Positions 40,844 through 52,204 of a DNA stretch of 64,000 bases are shown piece after piece. The DNA comes from a virus. Lineage: Duplodnaviria > Caudoviricetes. The notes beneath the pieces were generated by a model. It did not search any database and was not told where the DNA came from. It saw only the letters and a program-made list of their open reading frames with translations. The first letter of the stretch is position 1. Every line of letters begins with the position of its first letter. Location: IMG/VR virus record IMGVR_UViG_3300021387_000025, positions 32,001-96,000 of that record. The stretch is one strand, 5' to 3'. The position numbers were made by a program, and so were the translations under genes.

Positions 40844-41014
40844 GTACCAGGGGCGCCCGTTCGAACGGGCGTTCGATCCGAAAATCCCAAATACACCCGC
40901 CGGGTATTGTGCAATTTGCACAAAAAAGAAATTGAAAGTTTGTGCATTCTGCCTATTGCAATCCGGTGCTGATAGTGGTATACTTGACCCATCAAAAGAG
41001 AGGAGACCACCACA

Positions 41015-41473
41015 ATGACAAACCCCACCATTTTCGAACACATGATCGACGGATACAACACTCACGCGTACACGCACGAGTACATTTTTGGTTTTGAGTA
41101 CAAGGGCGTTGTCTATATGTCAAAAGCTACAAGCTCGGTTCTGCCCTTTGTCCTTTGCCTTGACCGCGCAAGCCGTGGCGCTGGATACGCGCTTCGCTTT
41201 AAGCCCAACAACGGGCAGAAGCTGGTCCTGATGGCTGGCGCTGAGGTCCTTTGCTCAAAGGAATATTTCGAATCGCTGGTTCAGTCCTCTATCTACAACG
41301 CGGGCGAGATCTTTGAGAAGCTGGTCACTGAAAAGTTCGGACAGACCTGGATCAAGGACAACGTACCGTTCACCCAGGACGGAGACCTCACGGTTGACGG
41401 GATCGCCTACCAGATCAAGTTCAACAAAGCTACCTTCATCAACGAAAAGCAGCTTGCAAGGCTCGAGGGCTGA
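41015..41473 (+). CDS. PD-(D/E)xK (QxK variant) nuclease-fold protein, paralog A1
   Basis: GEIFEKLV..DGDL..YQIK; near-collinear with 44301-44759. Confidence 0.7.
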   Translation: MTNPTIFEHMIDGYNTHAYTHEYIFGFEYKGVVYMSKATSSVLPFVLCLDRASRGAGYALRFKPNNGQKLVLMAGAEVLCSKEYFESLVQSSIYNAGEIFEKLVTEKFGQTWIKDNVPFTQDGDLTVDGIAYQIKFNKATFINEKQLARLEG

Positions 41474-41565
41474 GCCTTGCACCCGCTGCCCGGGCCGATA
41501 AAAAAGGCTTGACAAACACAAGCTGGTATGATATAATAAAGCTATAAAGAAAAGGAGATAAAACA

Positions 41566-41742
41566 ATGAAGTTTTTATTTGTCGGTTATATAGCTCTGAT
41601 TCTGGTGGTTTTCTTCTTCAGTATTATTCATCAGGATGATGTAAATAAGAATGGATCTCGTAAATTCAACTGGCGCTTTGTAATTGTCCTGATTATGTTC
41701 ATTGTTTCGCCAGTAGTTGCCAAGCTTTGCGGTCTGATGTGA
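41566..41742 (+). CDS. Small two-TM membrane protein, 58 aa
   Basis: Own promoter and AAGGAG RBS; MKFLFVGYIALILVVFFF..WRFVIVLIMFIV. Confidence 0.7.
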   Translation: MKFLFVGYIALILVVFFFSIIHQDDVNKNGSRKFNWRFVIVLIMFIVSPVVAKLCGLM

Positions 41743-41853
41743 TCGCAAAGTTGGCCGGGCGGCCGCTGCCGGAGAAAAAAAGATTAAAAAGCACTTGACA
41801 AACCGGAGAACATCTGTTATAATAGACTTATCAAAAGAGAGGAGAACACAACA

Positions 41854-42018
41854 ATGACAAAGGAAGAAATGCTTACACTGGTAATTAGAAGATTCGGATT
41901 TGAACATCAGTATACAATCGACTTTGCAGAGTCAATCGAATGGTTAGGACTGGAAGAGTCCAGAACGCTTCTCGAAGCGGTTCTGACACTCCCACTGGAA
42001 GAGGACGAAGAGGACTGA
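41854..42018 (+). CDS. Small acidic protein, 54 aa
   Basis: Own promoter, GAGGAG RBS, terminator hairpin over the stop codon. Confidence 0.7.
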   Translation: MTKEEMLTLVIRRFGFEHQYTIDFAESIEWLGLEESRTLLEAVLTLPLEEDEED

Positions 42019-42196
42019 AGTCCTCTTCTCTTTGGGCGCGGAGTTAGTCATGACTAACCACTGCCCGGGCGATGGCGGAGTTAGTCATGACTAACTACGC
42101 AGAGTCCCGCTGCCGGTATAAAAGATTAAAAAGGGACTTGACAAACGCGCGATAGTATGATATAATAAGACTATCAAAAGAAAGGAAGAATTAAAG

Positions 42197-42415
42197 ATGT
42201 ATAATGTAGATCTGGCTATGTGCAATGGTATGGATACAGTTATAACTCATGTAGAACATATTCCGTTCTATTCGAGATGGGCGGCGCGCAAATATTCGCG
42301 CGAAGTTATCAAATGCATTGATGTCTATCATATAACAATTATGGACATGGAAACTGGTGAAATCGTTTTGGAATTAAATAATGACGGTTCGATTGAATGG
42401 GACTCGGAGGGTTAA
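42197..42415 (+). CDS. Hypothetical protein, 72 aa
   Basis: Cassette promoter, RBS and hairpin. Confidence 0.75.
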   Translation: MYNVDLAMCNGMDTVITHVEHIPFYSRWAARKYSREVIKCIDVYHITIMDMETGEIVLELNNDGSIEWDSEG

Positions 42416-42542
42416 ACCCTCCGATTCTTTGCCCGGGCGTTGAGTTAGTCACGACTAATTCAAAACTTTTCCGAAAAAACTATTGACAAAATTCTATTCT
42501 TATGTTATACTAAAGTCAGAAAAAGAGAAAGGAATCCGAAAA

Positions 42543-42980
42543 ATGAGAATTTGTTTTGATATGGATGGAACGATCGCCGATCTTTACGGAGTTGAAGGAT
42601 GGTTGGAAAATCTCATTGAAGAAAATACAAGGCCTTACGAAGAAGCAAAAGTTTTACTAAATATGCAGGCACTTGCAAGAGTTCTGAATAATCTCCAGAA
42701 AAAGGGATATGAAATCGGAATTATCTCGTGGCTTTCCAAAAATGGTTCTGAAAAATATAACGAAAAAGTAAAACTTGCAAAAATCGAATGGTTGAAAAAT
42801 CACTTAAAAAGTGTTAGATTCGACTTTCTGGAAATTGTCAAATATGGAACAGATAAAAATCTGGTTTGTACTGGAAAATCTGATATTTTATTTGATGATG
42901 AAATCGGAAACCGTGAAAACTGGAAAGGCATTTCCTATAATGTAGAAAATATCATTGAAGTTTTAAGAAGATTGAAATAA
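42543..42980 (+). CDS. HAD-family 5'(3')-nucleotidase-like phosphatase, paralog B1
   Basis: FDMDGT, IISW, K..WL, LFDD; start moved to ATG 42543 after the RBS. Confidence 0.8.
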   Translation: MRICFDMDGTIADLYGVEGWLENLIEENTRPYEEAKVLLNMQALARVLNNLQKKGYEIGIISWLSKNGSEKYNEKVKLAKIEWLKNHLKSVRFDFLEIVKYGTDKNLVCTGKSDILFDDEIGNRENWKGISYNVENIIEVLRRLK

Positions 42981-43115
42981 TCCTCTTTTTTCTCGCGAAA
43001 ACGGCGCCCGGGCGCAATCGAACACACGTACGAACAAAATTTTTTTTAAAAATACTTGACAAACCGGAAAATGTATGCTATAATTAAACCATCAAAAGAA
43101 AGGAAGATAACAAAC

Positions 43116-43274
43116 ATGAAGACATGGGAAGAAATGAATAAAATGGAAAGACTCGCTGAAATTATGTTTCAAGAGGATGAAGAAAGGTATAATAATAATC
43201 AACCTTTGATGTATTACACTAAAGAAGATTTTGAAGCAGAAAAAAAAGAAAGAGAAAATGAAAAAAATACTTGA
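43116..43274 (+). CDS. Small protein, 52 aa
   Basis: Cassette promoter and RBS. Confidence 0.65.
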   Translation: MKTWEEMNKMERLAEIMFQEDEERYNNNQPLMYYTKEDFEAEKKERENEKNT

Positions 43275-43329
43275 CAAATTCCGGATTCTATGATATACTT
43301 ATACCATCAAAAGAAAGGAAGAAACGAAA

Positions 43330-43611
43330 ATGAGCGGATTTTATGAATTAAAATGTATGGATGGAATGGGATTTTATACTTATTATTATTTTTATAGTCC
43401 TCGTGCAATTCGCAACCCCAAGATGGCATTAAATCGTGGTTACGCTTCTGACGCCATGAGATTAGTGGTTGATGATAGAGAAGAAGACCCCGTTGCAATT
43501 AAATTCATGCACAATATTTTTGAATACATTTACAAAAAGTATTTCAAAAAGGCGGGGACTTTTAGATTGGGTTATCGTGTAGACTGGGAAAAAGAAAGTA
43601 AAAGAATCTAA
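43330..43611 (+). CDS. Hypothetical protein, 93 aa
   Basis: Cassette promoter and RBS. Confidence 0.7.
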   Translation: MSGFYELKCMDGMGFYTYYYFYSPRAIRNPKMALNRGYASDAMRLVVDDREEDPVAIKFMHNIFEYIYKKYFKKAGTFRLGYRVDWEKESKRI

Positions 43612-43766
43612 AAAAATTGGCAAAAATCGAAATATCTGTTACAATTTAAACATCGAAAAAGAGGACCAAAAATCCTCTTTTTTTCGCGCCCGGACGAAAA
43701 TTTTTACTTGACAAATTCTACTTTTTATGATATAATAAGTTTATCAAAAGAAAGGAATCTCCAAAA

Positions 43767-44018
43767 ATGAAGAAGTTTTTCGGTATTGAACACGGTTATA
43801 AATTCGAATGGAATGATCTTCGTTGTTTTGCAACGGTTATAAATGTCATCCTTATAATGGTTTTTGGACTTTCTATTTCATGGTTCGGTCTTGGAATTGC
43901 AATAGTTGGTCTTGTTAAAGATTTAACAAGTGATCGGCATATTAACGGAATTGTAATGCATTTATCAGGTATTGCATTAAATGTTTATTTCCTTTTTCTT
44001 TTGTACGGCGGAGTGTAA
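43767..44018 (+). CDS. Small membrane protein, 83 aa
   Basis: Hydrophobic segments; cassette signals. Confidence 0.7.
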   Translation: MKKFFGIEHGYKFEWNDLRCFATVINVILIMVFGLSISWFGLGIAIVGLVKDLTSDRHINGIVMHLSGIALNVYFLFLLYGGV

Positions 44019-44300
44019 AAACTCCGCTTTTTTCGCGCCGAAAACAAAAAAATTTTTTAAAAAGGTATTGACAAATCCCTTTTCTCATGATATAATAGTA
44101 TCATAGAAAAGGGAAGTGGAGTGGACACCGAGGACGCAAACATCCAACCAACAATCGAGTTAGTCATGACTAACTATTGCCCGGGCGCCAGTTAGTTGCG
44201 ACTAACCGCGCGAAAAAATTTTTAAAAAATTGAAAAAAGGGGTTGACAAATACCGGTTCATCTGCTATAATAGACTTATCAAAAGAAAGGAAACACCGAC

Positions 44301-44759
44301 ATGAATACCTCGATTTTCAACTACCTCATCGACAACTACAACAAACTCTCCTACACACACAACTACATTTTCGGTTTCGAATTCAATCATACAATCTATA
44401 TGGCACACGCTGACGCCGAAGTTCTCCCCTACGTGCTGACGCTGGACAAGGCAAGCCGTGGCGCTGGTTACAGCATCCGCTTCAAGCCCAACAAAAATCA
44501 GAAAATGGTTCTGATCACGAAAGCTGAGGTTCTCTGCTCCGCTGAATATTTCGAAAGTGAAGTAGCCGAAAGCAAGTACAACGCTGGTGAGATTTTCGAA
44601 AAGATGGTAACCGAAAGATTCGGTCAGACTTGGGAAAAAGACAATGTTCCCTTTACCGAAGACGGAGACCTCACAGTTGACGGAATCGCTTATCAGATCA
44701 AATTCAATAAAGCAACTTTCATCAATGAAAAGTCCCTCGCAAGGTTCCTCGCAATGTGA
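44301..44759 (+). CDS. PD-(D/E)xK (QxK variant) nuclease-fold protein, paralog A2
   Basis: Same motifs and length as 41015-41473. Confidence 0.7.
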   Translation: MNTSIFNYLIDNYNKLSYTHNYIFGFEFNHTIYMAHADAEVLPYVLTLDKASRGAGYSIRFKPNKNQKMVLITKAEVLCSAEYFESEVAESKYNAGEIFEKMVTERFGQTWEKDNVPFTEDGDLTVDGIAYQIKFNKATFINEKSLARFLAM

Positions 44760-44862
44760 ACCTTGCGACTTTTCTTTTGCCCGGGCGCGCCGAACAGAAG
44801 TTCGAGAAAAAATTTTTGAAAAAGCACTTGACATTTTCGACAAGGTATGCTATAATACATAA

Positions 44863-44937
44863 TGTCAGGAGGAGAGAAAGGTAAACCTCGGCAAGCCATA
44901 TAGGGAACGGGTTCAAATCCCGCGGAGTCGCTCTCCA
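44863..44937 (+). ncRNA. Candidate small tRNA-like structured RNA
   Basis: Own promoter, no ORF; GGAGAG/CTCTCC closing stem and CGGG-TTCAAAT-CCCG T-arm. Confidence 0.45.
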
Positions 44938-45007
44938 AACCACGAAACTTTTAAAAAGTTGTGAAAAACCTCTTGACAAATCAAATCAAATGTGCTATAA
45001 TAAAGGC

Positions 45008-45222
45008 ACAGTAAGGGAAGGAAAACCCAAACAAACCCCTCGATCAAGCCAGCGTTCAGCCCTCTGTGAAAACAGAGAAACCGCAACCGACAGGACGGAA
45101 GGCGCAAGGTGCCTATGTAAGACGGACAACGAGGTTAAAGAGCGGTTAGCAAACAACTCGCAAGGGTACGAACCCCTAACGCCGTGGGGTGCGTGAGTCT
45201 GAAGGAACTAAAATCCCTTTCA
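45008..45222 (+). ncRNA. Candidate about 210-nt structured ncRNA
   Basis: Own promoter, no RBS-led ORF, GC-rich, several nested helices including CTCTGT-GAAA-ACAGAG. Confidence 0.55.
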
Positions 45223-45442
45223 AAAACAAATGCGACTCTATGGCACCGCCATAGGTCGCGCCCGGGCCAAATTTTTTAAAATTATACTTGACAAATTAAA
45301 AAATCTATGCTATAATACATATAGAAAAAGAAAAGAAAAACAAAGGGCTTGCGGTAGTTGAATAAGATAGTTTGCAGAGACTTGCTCCTTTGAATTATTT
45401 GAAAGACTACTAACCCACCATTAAAAAGGAGGAAAACTTATA

Positions 45443-45721
45443 ATGATGATTAATCCCGAATATGCAAAACCTATTCTTAAACTTTCTAACTTGCTCAATG
45501 AGCGCAACATTCCCCACACAGTAAATGTGATTTGGGACGGTTTACAGATTCGCTTCCCTTGGAATGGTGGAGATATTATTTGCCATTCAGGTTCTTACTG
45601 GCATGAATATGGACATGTGGAATCAATGGGATGTCCTTGGGACAAGGACGATGTGACTTGTCTTCGTGTTGACGAGGCAGGCGAACTTGTTGCTGATTGG
45701 TGGGCAGAGGTTGGGGATTGA
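45443..45721 (+). CDS. Hypothetical protein, 92 aa
   Basis: AGGAGG RBS; about 120-nt leader after promoter 45288. Confidence 0.75.
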   Translation: MMINPEYAKPILKLSNLLNERNIPHTVNVIWDGLQIRFPWNGGDIICHSGSYWHEYGHVESMGCPWDKDDVTCLRVDEAGELVADWWAEVGD

Positions 45722-45822
45722 CCCAACCGTGCCCGGGCCGCCAAAAATTTTTGAAAACTACTTGACAAATCTACTTTTATATGGTATAATGTATTCAGAA
45801 AAAGAGAAAGGAACACTTAAAC

Positions 45823-46260
45823 ATGACAACTATTTTCTTTGATATGGACGGAACAATTGCTGATCTGTACGGCGTAGAAAATTGGTTAGAATATCTTCAG
45901 AATGAAGATGCTTTCCCTTATGTAAATGCAAAAGCACTCCTAAATTTACAAGCACTCGCGCGCAGACTCAATAATTTACAGAGAAAAGGATATAGAGTTG
46001 AGATTATTTCGTGGCTTTCTCGTACTTCTTCCGAAAATTATGATAGACTGGTTACAACTGCAAAAATTGAATGGTTAGAAACTCATTTACACTCGGTTCA
46101 TTTTAATAAAATTAATATCGTTCGTTATGGTACTAATAAAGACAACTTCCGCCATTCAGATTTTGATATTTTATTTGATGACGAAGAAAAGAACCGCGAA
46201 AACTGGGGTGGAATTTCATACAATGTTGATAATATTCTTGAGGTGTTGAGGAGGTTATAA
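45823..46260 (+). CDS. HAD-family 5'(3')-nucleotidase-like phosphatase, paralog B2
   Basis: FDMDGTIADLYGVE..LFDDE; collinear with 42543-42980. Confidence 0.8.
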   Translation: MTTIFFDMDGTIADLYGVENWLEYLQNEDAFPYVNAKALLNLQALARRLNNLQRKGYRVEIISWLSRTSSENYDRLVTTAKIEWLETHLHSVHFNKINIVRYGTNKDNFRHSDFDILFDDEEKNRENWGGISYNVDNILEVLRRL

Positions 46261-46394
46261 TGAGCAAAAAGAAAAAGAAAACTACGGACCGTGGGCCAAC
46301 TTTCGTTGGATTATCTCCTATTTATGAGAAAACAAAGAAAGAAAGAATTGAAAGTAAATATAGAAAGCATAAAGGGCGCCAACTCGATGAGTAG
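46260..46394 (+). CDS. Small basic protein, 44 aa, apparently ending at TAG
   Basis: GGAGG RBS and TAATG coupling; the TAG lies in the loop of the terminator hairpin. Confidence 0.55.
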   Translation: MSKKKKKTTDRGPTFVGLSPIYEKTKKERIESKYRKHKGRQLDE

Positions 46395-46521
46395 AGGGCG
46401 CCTTTTCTGTGGCCCGGGCGCCGAGTTAACATAGACTAACTAAAAATTTTTTGAAAAAATACTTGACTTTTTGAAAAAGATATGATATAATTGATTTATC
46501 AAAAGAAAGGAAACAAATCAA

Positions 46522-46677
46522 ATGTTCGGTGATCTTGTAAATCTCTATTGTTCCTATTGTGATCTTGCGGACTACTACTTCTGGGCTTCTCGTGATTGGG
46601 ATCGTAAAGAAAAATTCCAGGAGTATAAGAAACTGGCAAAGAATATCGAAGAAATTTTGAAAGGAATGTGTGAATAA
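46522..46677 (+). CDS. Small protein, 51 aa
   Basis: Cassette promoter and RBS. Confidence 0.65.
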   Translation: MFGDLVNLYCSYCDLADYYFWASRDWDRKEKFQEYKKLAKNIEEILKGMCE

Positions 46678-46678
46678 A

Positions 46679-46870
46679 ATGAATGAAGTTTGGTATAAGA
46701 TTGTAACTCCTCAGACAACCGTTGAAATTCAGGACTATGCAACCGCAAAGCGTTTGGAAAGAAACGGCGCGCAGGTTGAAAGAATTTATAAATATAAAAA
46801 TCTTTCGTGCATCACGGATGAAAAGAGAAGAGAAAAAATTCTCAGAAAGTACGGACTGTCGATGGTGTAA
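46679..46870 (+). CDS. Small protein, 63 aa
   Basis: AAGGA RBS; hairpin over the stop codon. Confidence 0.65.
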   Translation: MNEVWYKIVTPQTTVEIQDYATAKRLERNGAQVERIYKYKNLSCITDEKRREKILRKYGLSMV

Positions 46871-46958
46871 ACCATCGATGGCCCGGGCCAAAAATTTTGC
46901 TTGACATTTTCTAAAAAGTATGCTATAATAGATTTATCAAAGAAAAGGAGATTTTCAA

Positions 46959-47132
46959 ATGACTCACATCGAATTAGTTGAAAAGATTATTGAAGGTTTT
47001 CAGAAGCAATTTAAAGAATATCCAGTAGAAAGTGAAAACGAAGAAACCTTCCGTCAGGGCATGATTTTTGCTTACAAATACTTAATTGAAGTTTTAAAGA
47101 ACAATGGATATCCCTATATAGAAGAAGATTAA
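46959..47132 (+). CDS. Small protein, 57 aa
   Basis: Cassette promoter and AAGGAG RBS. Confidence 0.65.
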   Translation: MTHIELVEKIIEGFQKQFKEYPVESENEETFRQGMIFAYKYLIEVLKNNGYPYIEED

Positions 47133-47207
47133 AATTTTTCAAAAAGCACTTGACAAAATAAACTTTATAGTGTATAATAGTCTTATCAAAAGAAAGGAAA
47201 TATAAAA

Positions 47208-47339
47208 ATGTTTTACTTTTTAATGAGTCTTTTAAGTGAAAATCCCGCGGGTGGTCCACAGATGTTTGGAGCTTTGTGTGACGGTTTTTATTTTGGAATT
47301 TTGCTTTGTCAGATAGTCAAGGCAATTAGAAGGAAATGA
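47208..47339 (+). CDS. Small hydrophobic protein, 43 aa
   Basis: Cassette promoter and RBS. Confidence 0.6.
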   Translation: MFYFLMSLLSENPAGGPQMFGALCDGFYFGILLCQIVKAIRRK

Positions 47340-47447
47340 GCGAACACTTGTTCGCTCTTGCCCGGGCCGCCAATTTTTGAAAAAGTTCTTGACAAAATAA
47401 AAAAAGTATGCTATAATGAATCTATCAAAAGAAAGGAAATAATAAAA

Positions 47448-47645
47448 ATGGCAACATTAAGTTTGAAAACTGCTATGAACATGATGGATATTGTTAGTTA
47501 TACTCTTTGCCGCACTGTTTGTCAGGATGAGACTTTTAAGACTATGTCTCATGAAGAATTGACCGAATACATAACTAACACTACAGAAGAAATTTTCGTT
47601 GCTTTTTGTGATGAAGTAGGAATTGATGAAATAACAGAATGGTGA
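47448..47645 (+). CDS. Small acidic protein, 65 aa
   Basis: Cassette promoter and RBS; start moved to ATG 47448. Confidence 0.65.
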   Translation: MATLSLKTAMNMMDIVSYTLCRTVCQDETFKTMSHEELTEYITNTTEEIFVAFCDEVGIDEITEW

Positions 47646-48024
47646 TCCCTTCTTTCGTGCCCGGGCGCGGTTAGCATAGACTAACTTGAAAATTTTTTAA
47701 AAAGTGCTTGACATTTTCGGGTGTTTGTGATATACTATATATTGTCAAGGGGAGATAGAAAGCCACGGCAGACAGCGGTACCGCAAGGTATAAAAACAGT
47801 AAGAAAATTTTCAAAAACCCCTTGACAAACTCCACAAAATGTGGTATAATAAAGGTACAAAATCAAGAGGGCGTGAGAAAATGGAAGCGCTTAAAAAAAT
47901 AAAAAAAAGTTGAAAAACCTCTTGACAAACTCAAAAAAATGTGCTATAATAAACACATAAGAAATGGAGATGAACTCCAAAAAAACTTGAGGGTCGCAAC
48001 CTAATAGCGAGAAAGAGGTCTGAT

Positions 48025-48405
48025 ATGACGAATCGTGAATTTCTGAACACCATTATCAATGCAAACATCTCTGATGAGATCACCGCGCAGGCACAGGACA
48101 TGCTTGCAAAGCTGGACGCTCGCAACGCAAAGCGCGCCAGCACTCCGTCAAAGACGGCTGTAGCGAATGAGCCGATCAAGGCAAAGATCCTTGAGCTTCT
48201 CGGCAACGCGACTGAACTGATGACTGCTCCGCAGGTCGGTGAGGCAGTCGGCGTCAGCACTCAGAAGGCTTCCGCACTTCTCCGCCAGATGGTAGAGGTC
48301 GGCACTCTTACCTCGGAAGAGGTCAAGATTCCGAAGAAGGGCAAGATGAAGGGTTACACCCTCGCAGAGGGCGCGCAGTATCTCGATAACGAGATCGCGC
48401 AGTAA
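48025..48405 (+). CDS. Coiled-coil plus winged-HTH DNA-binding protein, paralog C1
   Basis: MTNREF..MTAPQVGEAVGVSTQKASALLRQMV..KGYTL. Confidence 0.75.
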   Translation: MTNREFLNTIINANISDEITAQAQDMLAKLDARNAKRASTPSKTAVANEPIKAKILELLGNATELMTAPQVGEAVGVSTQKASALLRQMVEVGTLTSEEVKIPKKGKMKGYTLAEGAQYLDNEIAQ

Positions 48406-48574
48406 CCCATAGTTAAAACCACAAGGGAGAGAGAAATCTCTCCCATTTTTTCGGTTTCGAGTTAGTCACGACTAACCGTGCCCGGGCCGCCATCCCGAAA
48501 TTTTTTAAAAAGTAGTTGACAAATTAAAAATTTTATGATATAATAAATCTATCAAAAGAAAGGAAGTACCCAAA

Positions 48575-48892
48575 ATGAGAAATTTTGATTGGTTTGATGA
48601 ACTTTATTGTGTTGTTAAAGAAGATGGAACTTTCGCAGGCGTTCCTTGTCAGTCGATTGAAGAAGCAATTGAACTTGCCGCGCAACATGATGGAAGTAAA
48701 ATCTTTGATATGAGACTTGATAATGAATCCCTTTGGGAATATAATGATTATGATCCATATGAAAATATTCGATCTTGGGAAAGAAAATGCGAACAAGATA
48801 TTGAATACATGATGCGGGAAAACGAGGATTATAATTGTGATGATGATACGGGTTATGATCCTTATATGGGTTGTTATACCGATGAGTGTTAA
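48575..48892 (+). CDS. Highly acidic protein, 105 aa
   Basis: Cassette signals; D/E/Y-rich. Confidence 0.7.
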   Translation: MRNFDWFDELYCVVKEDGTFAGVPCQSIEEAIELAAQHDGSKIFDMRLDNESLWEYNDYDPYENIRSWERKCEQDIEYMMRENEDYNCDDDTGYDPYMGCYTDEC

Positions 48893-49183
48893 CCATCGGT
48901 TTGCCCGGGCGCGAACACATGTTCGGTAAAAACTTTTTGAAAAAAGTACTTGACTTTTCGGCGAAAGTATGGTATTATATATATTGTCAAGGGGAGAGAT
49001 AAGCGAGTGAGCGCTCCTCGGTTCAAAAGTCCTGCCGAGTGGCAGATAACAAGTAGATGAAAAAATCTTGAGAAACCCCTTGACAAACTTCAAAAAGTAT
49101 GCTATAATAAGCATGTAAAACAAAAGGAGATGAACTCCAAAACTTAAGGGTCGCCACCATACAGCGAGAAAGGATTTTATACC

Positions 49184-49531
49184 ATGACAAACCGTGAATT
49201 CTACAATGCAATCGTTGACGCTAACCTCTCTGATGAGATCACCGAAAAGGCGCAGGCGCTTCTGGCGCAGATCGACGCGAGAAACGAGAAGCGTGCTTCC
49301 ACTCCGTCGAAGAAGTCGGTCGAGAACGCACCTCTCAAGGATGCAATCGTAGCCCTCTTCAATGACGAGGTTAAGGTTCTCACCGCCGCCGAGGTCGGTG
49401 TTCGTCTTGAGATCACGACTCAGAAAGCGTCTGCTCTTCTGCGTCAGATGGTCGAGGGCGGTGTCCTCACCGCCGAGGAAGTAAAGGTTCCCAAGAAAGG
49501 AAAGGTCAAGGCTTACTCCCTTGTGGGGTAA
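49184..49531 (+). CDS. Coiled-coil plus winged-HTH protein, paralog C2
   Basis: Collinear with 48025-48405. Confidence 0.75.
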   Translation: MTNREFYNAIVDANLSDEITEKAQALLAQIDARNEKRASTPSKKSVENAPLKDAIVALFNDEVKVLTAAEVGVRLEITTQKASALLRQMVEGGVLTAEEVKVPKKGKVKAYSLVG

Positions 49532-49745
49532 CCGCAACACCGAGGGGAGAATTTTCTCCCCTCTTTTTTAGCAAAAAGTTAGTCTTGACTAACTCGCCCG
49601 GGCCGCCATCACAATAAAATTTGAAAAAATTATAATTTTTTTGTATAATATATTTAGAAAAAATAAAAAAGTTTTGAAAAAAACACTTGACAAATCCCAT
49701 TTTATATGATATAATCTACTTGTAAAAAGAAAGGAGATAAACAAT

Positions 49746-50114
49746 ATGGCAACTTCCAAGAAATCCCTTAATGACAAACTTCGTTATCGTTATCTGAACC
49801 TTATTAGTGACTATCTTCATTCACAGGACGAAGAGGTTCTCGTAACTGGTTCGAATGAAATCTGTATCCCTTGTCTTGACGAAGAGGGAAACGATGAATT
49901 TATGGTTATCACTTTCAAGGTTCCCACTGGTTCGCGCGATGGTGACGCATACGACGGTTATGCACTCGCCGAAGAGTACGAAATGAAGTGCAAGGAAAAG
50001 ATGGAAAAGGCGAAAGAGTCCGCAAAAAAGAAAGCGGAAAAGATCGCGCGAGATAAGGCAAACCGCGAAGCACGCGCGAAAGCAAAAGCGGAACATCAGG
50101 CAAAGGAGGCGTAA
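49746..50114 (+). CDS. Hypothetical protein with K/A-rich helical tail, paralog D1
   Basis: TGSNEI..PC.D.EGNDEF..KVPTG..YDGY shared with 51693-52064. Confidence 0.75.
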   Translation: MATSKKSLNDKLRYRYLNLISDYLHSQDEEVLVTGSNEICIPCLDEEGNDEFMVITFKVPTGSRDGDAYDGYALAEEYEMKCKEKMEKAKESAKKKAEKIARDKANREARAKAKAEHQAKEA

Positions 50115-50215
50115 GCCTCCGTTTGTCTGGCCCGGGCAAAAATTTTAAAAAACTGCTTGACAAGTTTAAAAAAGTATGGTATAATAACTATAGAAAACAG
50201 AAAAGGAGAATAAAA

Positions 50216-50422
50216 ATGAGTGATAAAAATAACAACAGTGTAAAATCTGGTATCGGTTTCAGCGGTTTGCTTACAATTGCTTTTGTTGTATTAAAACTAT
50301 GTGGTGTAATCACTTGGTCTTGGTTGTGGGTACTTTCCCCGTTGTGGATTTCAACGGCGATTGTTCTACTGATTGTGATTATGATTTTGATTATTGTCGC
50401 TGTGAATTCAGAAAGTACTTGA
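50216..50422 (+). CDS. Small membrane protein, 68 aa
   Basis: GIGFSGLLTIAFVVLKLCGVITWSWLWVLSPLW, a motif common in phage membrane proteins. Confidence 0.75.
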   Translation: MSDKNNNSVKSGIGFSGLLTIAFVVLKLCGVITWSWLWVLSPLWISTAIVLLIVIMILIIVAVNSEST

Positions 50423-50474
50423 CAAATCAGACTTAATGTGCTATAATAAAACTATCAGAAGAAATGAAAATGAC

Positions 50475-50609
50475 ATGGACGAACACGATAAAAAAGAAAT
50501 AGAAAAACTTAAAAGTTTTAAAAAATGGTATCTTTGGTTTTTGTCAGCTTCAGAAGAAGAAAAAAAAGAATATTTAAGAAACAGATGGAAAGCAGAAGAA
50601 AGGAAATAA
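50475..50609 (+). CDS. Small charged protein, 44 aa
   Basis: Follows promoter 50419; weak RBS. Confidence 0.4.
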   Translation: MDEHDKKEIEKLKSFKKWYLWFLSASEEEKKEYLRNRWKAEERK

Positions 50610-50769
50610 AAATTATAATGATGAAAAAGAGGAGTAATCCTCTTTTTGCCCGGGCCGCGGTTAGTGGAGACTAACTAAAAAAATAAAAAATTTTTTTCAA
50701 AACCACTTGACAAATCGGTTCTTTTATGGTATAATCTCTATTGTAAGTTAAAGAAAGGAACACACTACC

Positions 50770-51411
50770 ATGAATCATCTGATTGTACTTGACACTGAAA
50801 CCACAAACTCCATCGAAGAACCCCTTGCATATGACATTGGTTGGGCCGTCGTAACCGAAGAGGGTAAAGTTCTCAAAACTGAAAGCTACGCTGTGGCTGA
50901 AATTTTCCTTGACAAGGAGCTGATGCAGGTAGCATATTTTGCGGAGAAGATCCCGCAATATTGGGAAGAGATCAAAAACGGTAACCGCAAGCTGGCGCGT
51001 CTGTCAACGATTTTCAAATCTCTTTACGCTGATACTCGCGCCTATGATGTGAAAGAAATCTATGCACACAACGCGCGTTTTGATGACCTCAGCCTCAAGC
51101 TTACTCAGCGCTTTATTAGCGGTTCGAAATATCGTTACTTCCTCCCCTATGGCGTGAAGATGTGCGACACCTTGAAAATGTCAAGAGAAGCCTTCGGCAA
51201 AGACCCTGAATATAAAGCCTTCTGTGATGAAAACAATTACAAGACGCCGAGAGGTCAGCGCAAAATGACCGCAGAAGTTCTATATAGGTTCATCAGTGGA
51301 CAGAATGACTTTGAAGAGGTTCACAAGGGGCTTGATGATGTATTGATCGAAAAAGAAATTTTAATCGAGTGCAGACGGCGCGGTGTGGTTGATGGGTCAC
51401 TCTTCGAGTGA
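50770..51411 (+). CDS. DEDDh-family 3'-5' exonuclease
   Basis: LDTETT, AHNARFD, H.GLDDV motifs. Confidence 0.85.
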   Translation: MNHLIVLDTETTNSIEEPLAYDIGWAVVTEEGKVLKTESYAVAEIFLDKELMQVAYFAEKIPQYWEEIKNGNRKLARLSTIFKSLYADTRAYDVKEIYAHNARFDDLSLKLTQRFISGSKYRYFLPYGVKMCDTLKMSREAFGKDPEYKAFCDENNYKTPRGQRKMTAEVLYRFISGQNDFEEVHKGLDDVLIEKEILIECRRRGVVDGSLFE

Positions 51412-51692
51412 CCCGAAAAACGGCGCCCGGGCGCCCATAAGAAAATCTTATAGAAAAAGTGCTTGACTTTTTCAAGATTCTGTGGTATTATATATATTGT
51501 CAAGAGGAGAGACGACCATCGCAAGAAATCTTGTCGGGAACCCTAACACGGCACGTCCTATGACCGCCGCAGAAGGTGAGGCGTAGGGAGAGAGGACTCA
51601 AAAAATTTTTTCAAAAACTTTTGAAAAACCCCTTGACAAACCTCTGAAAATGTGATATAATAGACCTATCAAAAGAAAGGAAGGTACATAAA

Positions 51693-52064
51693 ATGGCAGT
51701 ATCTCGTAAAACTCTTCGTGACAATCTCCGCACCGCTTATCTCGATCGTGTGATCGCACTCTTCACCGCTGACGGTGAGGAAATCCTGCGGACGGGTTCC
51801 AATGAAATCGCCCTCCCCTGCGTGGACGCTGAGGGCAATGATGAGTTCGTAGTCGTAACGCTCAAGGTGCCGACTGGCGAGCGTGGCGGAGATCCGTATG
51901 ACGGCTACGGCGAGGCCGAGGCCTACGCTATGAAGGTAGCAGAAAAGGCCGAGAAGGCCAAGGAAGCGGCGGCGAAGAAGGCCGCCAAGATTGCCAAGGA
52001 CGAGGCTGACCGCAAGGCAAAGGCCGAAGCCAAGGCGAGAGCCAAGACGGAAAAGGGAGAGTGA
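51693..52064 (+). CDS. Hypothetical protein, paralog D2
   Basis: Collinear with 49746-50114. Confidence 0.75.
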   Translation: MAVSRKTLRDNLRTAYLDRVIALFTADGEEILRTGSNEIALPCVDAEGNDEFVVVTLKVPTGERGGDPYDGYGEAEAYAMKVAEKAEKAKEAAAKKAAKIAKDEADRKAKAEAKARAKTEKGE

Positions 52065-52175
52065 AAACTCTCCTGCGTCTGAAAGGGGTTAATACCCCTT
52101 TCTTTTTCTTCTACAGTTAGTTGTGACTAACTTTGCCCGGGCATCGTCTACCCGGGCGCGCATCCCTAACCTTCC

Positions 52176-52204
52176 ATTATAACACAACTTTGAATTTTTG
52201 TCAA
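52176..52204 (-). promoter_or_regulatory. Leftward consensus promoter firing antisense into the array end
   Basis: TTGACA-N17-TATAAT on the minus strand, no ORF downstream. Confidence 0.7.

Follow-up and report, generated by a model that had tools for sequence, protein, structure and literature searches.

The pRNA of phi29 is a phage-encoded structured RNA of 120-174 nucleotides (nt), which acts in trans and whose promoter is a strong early one of host type. A catalogue mined from IMG/VR is described as comprising 8495 csRNAs, with motifs of 29-151 nt and a requirement for at least three unique IMG/VR regions (PMC10690425). In Bacillus, by the account of one review, Shine-Dalgarno (SD)-like 5' sequences without a start codon stabilise RNAs, as in STAB-SD and the polypurine stabiliser of phage SP82 (PMC3997798). 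This work concerns a locus in a tailed rumen phage, IMG/VR record IMGVR_UViG_3300021387_000025, of which bases 32001-96000 were analysed as one 64,000-nt stretch, referred to here as the window. Positions 45008-45262 of the window have the sequence of a transcription unit without a gene, which would yield an RNA of about 250 nt. This RNA is a member of an uncatalogued family of structured phage RNAs, and is new at the level of the RNA family in that it has no curated match. The first-pass annotation of the window had proposed a promoter-driven structured noncoding RNA of no known class, and that proposal is upheld by homologues, by covariation, and by the negative results of searches with Rfam 15.

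Homologues and the conserved core

The evidence for this family began with a scan of JGI metagenomes for the 152-amino-acid (aa) protein encoded upstream, which gave 57 loci against which window positions 44760-45442 were compared by blastn. Locus L075 matched at 76% over 270 nt (L075:1442-1695, E 2e-42), and shorter matches were found in L051 and L094. Seven homologues are now known, all in rumen-phage contigs and each behind its own promoter: three form family A, with promoters of the form TTGACA-17-TATAMT, and four more distant copies form family B (Table 1). A covariance model, R2, built only from the three closest family A sequences, was used to search 267 kb, and matched L049 (E 1.4e-7), L051b (3.8e-7), L020 (1e-4) and L094 (1.8e-3). 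Contig L051, which is the same phage as IMG/VR record G001, carries both families 2 kb apart. Family B has a long-range helix of 6 base pairs (bp) that has been rewritten twice with its pairing kept, as CCGAGG/CCUCGG, CCAAGG/CCUUGG and CCGCGG/CCGCGG.

The copies share a core whose helices covary. Firstly, RNAalifold, applied to the window, L075 and L051a after plain alignment with MAFFT, predicted P1, Pb (as 45087-90/45095-98) and Pc, with five of the 15 predicted pairs changing on both sides. Secondly, in a seven-sequence MAFFT alignment of the core, Pc was 93% paired, and one of its positions was occupied by all four Watson-Crick types (G-C, C-G, A-U and U-A). Thirdly, the main figures, which cover P1, Pb and Pc, come from a seven-row alignment fitted to model R2. 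In this alignment 89.9% of cells pair, against 66.0 +/- 3.6 in shuffles (0/500 reaching the observed value), and nine of the 13 pairs change on both sides (2/500 shuffles). The covariation score is 0.542, compared with 0.205 when shuffled (0/500), and is at most 0.150 when the 3' partners are slid by 1-3 columns. Changes on both sides affect four of the five pairs in P1, where 91% of cells pair, and three of the four in Pb, where 81% do so; in Pc, 93-96% of cells pair.

Conserved unpaired bases lie around these helices, with GCAA preceding Pb, AA separating Pb from Pc, and AUGUAAGAC following Pc. Family B has GUWAGAC at the AUGUAAGAC site (GUAAGUC in L072), and GU-AGAC is invariant in the seven-sequence alignment. 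The whole has the appearance of a riboswitch-type aptamer, with P1, Pb and Pc covarying around junction bases that are invariant in family A.

All the helices listed by the first-pass annotation occur in the sequence to within 1 nt of where it had placed them, and the collection of homologues that it had proposed as a check, now numbering seven, has shared helices that covary. Its CTCTGT-GAAA-ACAGAG hairpin, here Pa, is supported by L075 and L094, in which the site has a different 3-bp stem and the same GAAA loop; L051 has no hairpin there. Its GGCGC/GUGCC helix is Pc, and draws its support from the four Watson-Crick types at one position. P1 and Pb, both supported by the homologues, were absent from its list. 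Its AACCGC/GCGGUU helix, here candidate P2, remains a candidate: by eye, a C-G pair is swapped for G-C in L051, the only copy with such a swap, and L094 has complementary strands in a shifted register, but the helix crosses P1, and therefore would be a pseudoknot or an alternative fold. Lastly, the GCCCGGGC element that had been assigned to the unit is a junction motif of the surrounding array.

Downstream of the core, the 3' domain is found only in the subtype represented by the window and L075. The 44-nt block that is identical in these two phages, set against their overall identity of 79%, points to constraint on the sequence itself. Over the RNA as a whole, nucleotide identity is 79%, compared with 74% in the neighbouring protein gene. 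The ACUCGCA/UGCGUGAGU helix of the first-pass annotation, still a candidate, falls in a block that hardly varies between the only two sequences to have it. The few changes within the domain affect one side of a pair only, and they preserve pairing whichever of two rival folds is assumed, that helix or a long RNAalifold hairpin at about 45170-45191.

Table 1. Features of the RNA unit, its surroundings and its homologues (window positions, unless a locus is named)
Feature	Position	Strand	Description
Sigma-A-type promoter	44973-45001	+	TTGACA 44973-78, 17-nt spacer, TG 44993-94, TATAAT 44996-45001
5' leader	45013-45031	+	3-bp hairpin 45015-17/45026-28 presenting SD-like loop AAGGAAAA
Core domain	45038-45134	+	Closed by P1, 45038-42/45130-34
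Pa	45062-45077	+	6-bp hairpin with GAAA (GNRA) tetraloop
Pb	45087-45098	+	Hairpin 45087-89/45096-98
Pc	45101-45113	+	Hairpin 45101-04/45110-13, includes a G.U pair on the + strand
Unpaired junction AUGUAAGAC	45115-45123	+	Conserved; invariant in four family A copies
P2 (candidate)	45080-84/45142-46	+	Long-range helix, by-eye alignment only
3' domain	45157-45219	+	Window/L075 subtype only; holds 44-nt block 45173-45216, identical in both phages
3' hairpin	45233-45259	+	12 bp with one bulge, -19.3 kcal/mol; followed by junction octamer GCCCGGGC
GCCCGGGC	45260-45267	none	Array junction motif, outside the RNA fold; recurs between hairpin and promoter of most cassettes
Neighbouring ORF-less unit	44828-44945	+	Promoter 44828-56; RNA of about 85 nt, tRNA T-arm-like element
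Family A copy, L075	1493-1725		Promoter 1462-90; terminator 1703-17, scan-flagged
Family A copy, L051	1362-1562		Promoter 1325-53; terminator 1531-54, scan-flagged
Family A copy, L094	1305-1560		Promoter 1273-1301; weak scan hit 1544-56, stronger hairpin by eye
Family B copies	L049:3611-3822, L020:5518-5815, L051:3355-3585, L072:2017-2262		Same leader, related core, different 3' domain

The family is thinly spread. The source phage has one copy; when both models were run against 26 other IMG/VR records, the only carriers were G001 (two copies) and G005 (one), making three of 27 with the source phage, and among the 57 metagenome loci a copy is present in five contigs. Comparison of 44800-45330 with 50,697 cultured-phage records by blastn gave no match, and in close IMG/VR relatives (18 loci by blastn and nhmmer, and five whole relatives by DNA search) only the promoter and leader were matched. 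Pattern searches were similarly sparse: the leader with the GNRA hairpin had no match in the metagenomes, and the 3' block none in IMG/VR, where Pc with the junction was found in only one other phage, and the family B motif in only the two contigs already known. The core pattern matched seven times in 185,579 species genomes, and these are read as chance matches; none scored like a family member, and three of the seven sit in a region that is conserved among metagenome-assembled genomes of Bacteroidales and looks protein-coding.

Closer relatives of the 152-aa protein exist in metagenomes, with neighbouring proteins P0002 and P0003 being 95% and 93% identical. In one such relative, the 92% identical L046, the sequence ends 65 nt after the gene. 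The closest available relative, L058, is 89% identical in the 152-aa gene and is without the RNA cassette. At L058:330-1741, a 72-aa gene resembling that at window 42197-42415 takes the place of two units without an open reading frame (ORF) and the 92-aa gene, a difference that looks like cassette shuffling at the junction motif. Given its absence from L058 and its patchy distribution, the RNA is best regarded as an accessory cassette with a high turnover, like the small early genes around it.

The transcription unit and its ends

The promoter that the first-pass annotation had located at 44973 matches the consensus at 12 of 12 positions, with an extended -10 element, and its spacing makes about 45008 the likely start of transcription. 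Downstream of this point, neither ATG, GTG nor TTG occurs with an SD sequence, whether translated with table 11 or with TAG read as glutamine, bearing out the accompanying claim that no ORF led by a ribosome-binding site (RBS) follows the promoter. The 68-codon frame at 44990-45196 opens within the -10 box and lacks a start codon anywhere inside it, and an open frame of this length is expected given a composition of 13% T. The long open frames of the window (62 codons) and L075 (77 codons) share two short peptide stretches and coincide over part of their length, after which a 1-nt indel shifts the frame, such that the identical block at 45173-45216 is read in different frames in the two phages. 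Hence the reading frame is not conserved between the window and its closest homologue. In the L051 and L094 homologues every frame is interrupted by stops, and none of the copies has a start codon accompanied by an SD sequence. When all loci and the remainder of the phage were searched with tblastx, neither a protein-level match nor a relic of one was found. The features of a small-protein gene, an RBS-led start and a frame conserved among homologues, were therefore not found, nor was the conserved coding signature in the 44990-45196 frame that the first-pass annotation had named as evidence that would overturn its proposal. A start-stop mini-ORF, AUG-UAA at 45115-20, was also considered and dropped, as family B lacks the AUG and conservation does not extend to the SD sequence.

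At the 5' end, the first-pass annotation had paired the start of the RNA with its distal part, in an outer closing stem of AAGGGA with UCCCUU. This pairing is unsupported. A G-to-A change in L075 is compensated locally, turning a G-C pair of the leader hairpin into A-U (as also, by eye, in L051:3359-72), rather than in the distal UCC-A-CU, and 45013-31 is therefore read as a leader. The same 19-mer occurs in 13 other IMG/VR stretches (L025-L037) from diverse phages, always 4-6 nt after the -10 box and mostly ahead of a true RBS and ORF. In the unit described here, the loop containing AAGGA begins some 10 nt downstream of the inferred start and is not followed by a start codon, which is a feature of STAB-SD elements. 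By analogy, the leader is probably a portable 5' stabiliser or ribosome-binding module.

At the 3' end, the copies have the properties of independent small RNA genes to differing degrees. All have their own promoter, and there is a terminator in L075 and L051, and probably in L094; after the terminators of L075 and L051, a fresh consensus promoter precedes the next gene. In the window, the terminal hairpin has no adjacent U-run and was not flagged as a + strand terminator, with the T-run beginning 12 nt after the stem.

No established class of RNA accounts for the unit. Rfam 15 (4227 models) gave no match at gathering score over the window, and nothing relevant at E values up to 10 on 44500-45500, this being the scan that the first-pass annotation had called for. 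Of the seven homologues, five had their loci scanned at a cut-off of E 1, relaxed to E 10 for two of them, and no relevant family emerged; neither L072 nor the IMG/VR twin L103 was among the loci covered. ARAGORN found no tRNA or transfer-messenger RNA (tmRNA) in the window, although it found 29 tRNAs elsewhere in the phage. Together with the Rfam scans, this agrees with the initial judgement that the RNA is not a known ribozyme, riboswitch, tmRNA or RNase P. Partners of other RNA systems were likewise not encountered: in 44800-45320, the only tandem repeat that might resemble ToxI is a 5-nt CAAAT triplet in the promoter spacer; no RVT_1 match, as a retron would have, occurs anywhere in the phage; and there is no TROVE (Ro60) or RtcB gene in the phage to partner a Y RNA or YrlA. 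Two specific candidates were rejected. A permuted tmRNA, formed from the upstream T-arm unit and the RNA, is countered by the silence of ARAGORN, and the 7-nt complementarity of 44926-32 with 45233-39 is at chance level. A CsrA sponge would rely on six GGA motifs, where base composition predicts 5.4.

Proposed role and rival explanations

The unit may be understood as an RNA gene, carried as an early accessory cassette and producing a stable RNA that acts in trans on a host or phage factor, a reading to which we give about an even chance. Under this proposal, the host sigma-A RNA polymerase would transcribe the unit from 44973-45001 into an RNA of about 250 nt. The SD-like hairpin leader would block 5'-3' decay, by analogy with STAB-SD and the SP82 stabiliser, and the 3' hairpin would protect the other end, with the protection of both ends enabling the RNA to accumulate early. 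The RNA would then act in trans, using the conserved junction and the invariant 3' block to bind a protein or small ligand of host or phage origin. What we infer is transcription itself, the stability of the RNA, that it acts in trans and that it has a binding partner.

Several observations weigh against this proposal. Firstly, the folding energy of the body is at chance level: positions 45008-45232 (225 nt) have a minimum free energy of -57.1 kcal/mol, against -54.0 +/- 4.6 for dinucleotide shuffles (z -0.67), and 48 of 200 shuffles fold as well. The reverse strand of the same 225 nt scores z -0.91; for 45008-45275 z falls to -2.06, but it is the terminal hairpin that accounts for this. The unit therefore cannot be called highly structured from the lone sequence, as the first-pass annotation had done. 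Secondly, the covariation comes from only eight sequences, and the best counts are those of the alignment fitted to the model, where part of the L094 row is out of place in P1. Thirdly, the search for an antisense target in the phage genome found none beyond A-rich chance matches. Fourthly, there is no co-occurring partner gene, the 92-aa neighbour being present in only one other RNA-bearing contig. Fifthly, as the 3' hairpin is not a canonical terminator here, read-through into the cassette at 45288 is possible. Finally, in L072 the family B copy is followed without a break by an RBS and ORF, suggesting a role in cis for some members.

This last pair of observations is what a cis-acting leader would predict, in which an aptamer or polymerase-modifying element, whether riboswitch-like or put/EAR-like, controls read-through from 44973 into the 92-aa cassette. 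The invariant unpaired junction bases and the GNRA loop, as in aptamers, can be read the same way. We nevertheless consider a cis-acting leader unlikely. Strong terminators directly follow the RNA in L075 and L051, with a weaker one in L094, and in L075 and L051 a new promoter comes next, as one does at 45288 here; hence an expression platform is not seen, fusion to an ORF being confined to the L072 copy. Different genes follow the different copies, and antitermination would bring little gain, because every downstream cassette in this phage has its own promoter. Nor did any known riboswitch or antiterminator family match in Rfam.

The RNA might also be a free-standing aptamer or decoy, its junction and 3' block soaking up a component of host defence, either a signalling nucleotide or an RNA-binding protein of defence or decay. 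It would then be an anti-defence sponge made of RNA alone, swappable as a cassette and synthesised in bulk early, with families A and B representing two specificities; both the decoy and this elaboration of it have only a slim chance of being correct.

A non-functional relic is improbable. The unit would then be a cassette that had lost its gene, or filler between promoters that serve polymerase capture or genome entry, and the similarity between copies would reflect recent exchange. Such an origin fits the chance-level folding energy, the other stacked gene-less promoters in the array and the absence of the cassette from L058. It is at odds with stems that have been rewritten with their pairing kept across copies that are hard to align, with a 44-nt identical run in a pair that is 79% identical, and with an RNA at least as conserved as the neighbouring protein gene; the tblastx searches, moreover, detected no protein-level relic.

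A DNA-level element, comprising protein-binding palindromes or an origin-like structure, is very improbable, although the array is rich in DNA palindromes (GCCCGGGC and GTTAG-type) and hairpin covariation alone would also fit cruciforms. The G.U pairs in Pc and the 3' domain, which occur on the + strand only and are A.C mismatches on the other, argue for an RNA made from the + strand rather than a DNA element. A promoter also frames every copy, with terminators flagged by the scan in L075 and L051 and weakly in L094, and the long-range P1, spanning about 90 nt, is not of a DNA type. A small protein, from the 44990-45196 frame or another short ORF, is scarcely credible, as the shared peptide stretches and long frames of the window and L075 are outweighed by the missing start, the 13% T composition and the divergence of frames described above.

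If an RNA gene acting in trans is the correct interpretation, and its product binds a host factor, the RNA would represent a novel type of takeover or anti-defence tool, as well as a compact natural fold for structural study. Early takeover regions are usually read as arrays of small-protein genes. Here at least one cassette, and probably several, would be an RNA gene with a conserved fold.

The early array and described systems

The source phage record is 119,955 bp long, has direct terminal repeats and is rated 100% complete. The phage encodes a tape-measure protein and an anaerobic ribonucleotide reductase, and the nearest cultured relatives of its Pol III-alpha-type DNA polymerase are SPbeta-like Bacillus phages, at 36% identity. 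Its 29 tRNA genes lie outside the window on the minus strand (G000:C1:104415-119327); one has a CUA anticodon, a possible sign that TAG is read through or recoded in some of the phage's genes.

The unit lies in an early array at 41.5-52 kb of the window, which has about 28 co-oriented promoters with perfect or near-perfect matches to TTGACA-17-TGnTATAAT, one per 100-700 nt. A typical cassette boundary consists of a hairpin, the octamer GCCCGGGC, an A/T-rich tract, a promoter and a purine-rich leader ahead of a small gene. Across window 40850-52200, GCCCGGGC is found at most cassette junctions, often beside palindromes of the GTTAG-N6-CTAAC type, and about half of the hairpins that end cassettes have no adjacent T-run. 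The 92-aa gene downstream of the RNA unit occupies 45443-45721, and its cassette has its own promoter at 45288; its leader (window 45288-45442) extends about 125 nt before the gene, where most cassettes have about 30 nt. The unit is 51% G+C, which is not special, as several neighbouring early genes are at 45-59%.

Other stretches without ORFs punctuate such arrays. Immediately upstream, the unit at 44828-44945 forms one junction-to-junction block with the RNA unit. ARAGORN is silent on it and its folding energy is unremarkable (z +0.67); it has complementary ends, GGAGAG and CUCUCC, followed by A, and its features suggest a mimic of the top half of a tRNA. Similar units precede the family B RNA in L049 and are fused to it in L072. 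Three consensus promoters are stacked at window 47708-47950, separated by ORF-less stretches of 60-85 nt, the first of which begins like the unit at 44863. Just upstream of the L075 homologue is a further ORF-less unit, running from promoter to terminator (L075:1165-1440), of which 83 nt match stretches in L017, L018, L019 and L098 at 80% identity. Early arrays may therefore hold several families of RNA genes.

Among described systems, phi29 pRNA is similar in being a structured phage RNA with a strong early host-type promoter and, as proposed here, action in trans. It differs in that the RNA of this work has no Rfam match and comes from a tailed phage of 120 kb that encodes tRNAs and a polymerase of Pol III type, rather than from a phi29-like podovirus. 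Furthermore, whereas the phi29 RNA is an essential part of packaging, this cassette is dispensable in the closest relative.

The ROOL, Drum and GOLLD RNAs (PMC12286853) have in common with this family an origin in rumen-derived and phage DNA, a multi-helix architecture supported by covariation, the lack of an adjacent regulated gene, and the status of orphan RNAs. However, none of their models match the RNA, even at E 10. This RNA is also much smaller than ROOL or GOLLD, has an SD-like 5' leader, and resides in an early promoter array, not near tRNAs. The likeness to riboswitch aptamers lies in a junction where several short helices meet, in unpaired bases that are invariant and in the conservation of a GNRA loop. 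Unlike riboswitches, the window and the three family A copies lack an expression platform or an adjacent regulated ORF, and no riboswitch in Rfam matches.

The catalogue of PMC10690425 draws on the same data source and the same kind of evidence, namely covariation in phage intergenic DNA. The RNA family here, present in at most three IMG/VR records, is set apart from it by the catalogue's own description: as at least three regions were required and motifs do not exceed 151 nt, overlap between the family and those predictions is unlikely.

For the leader, at 45013-31 only, the comparison is with STAB-SD and the SP82 stabiliser (Agaisse and Lereclus 1996; Hue et al. 1995, as cited in PMC3997798). 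As far as that review describes them, the resemblance consists of an SD-like purine tract only a few nt from the 5' end, without a start codon, in early transcripts of a Firmicute-type phage. The leader described here differs in that its tract is the loop of a covarying 3-bp hairpin, and that it heads both noncoding RNAs and mRNAs. If it is stabilising, it may represent a portable stabiliser for the early RNAs of phages in anaerobic Firmicutes.

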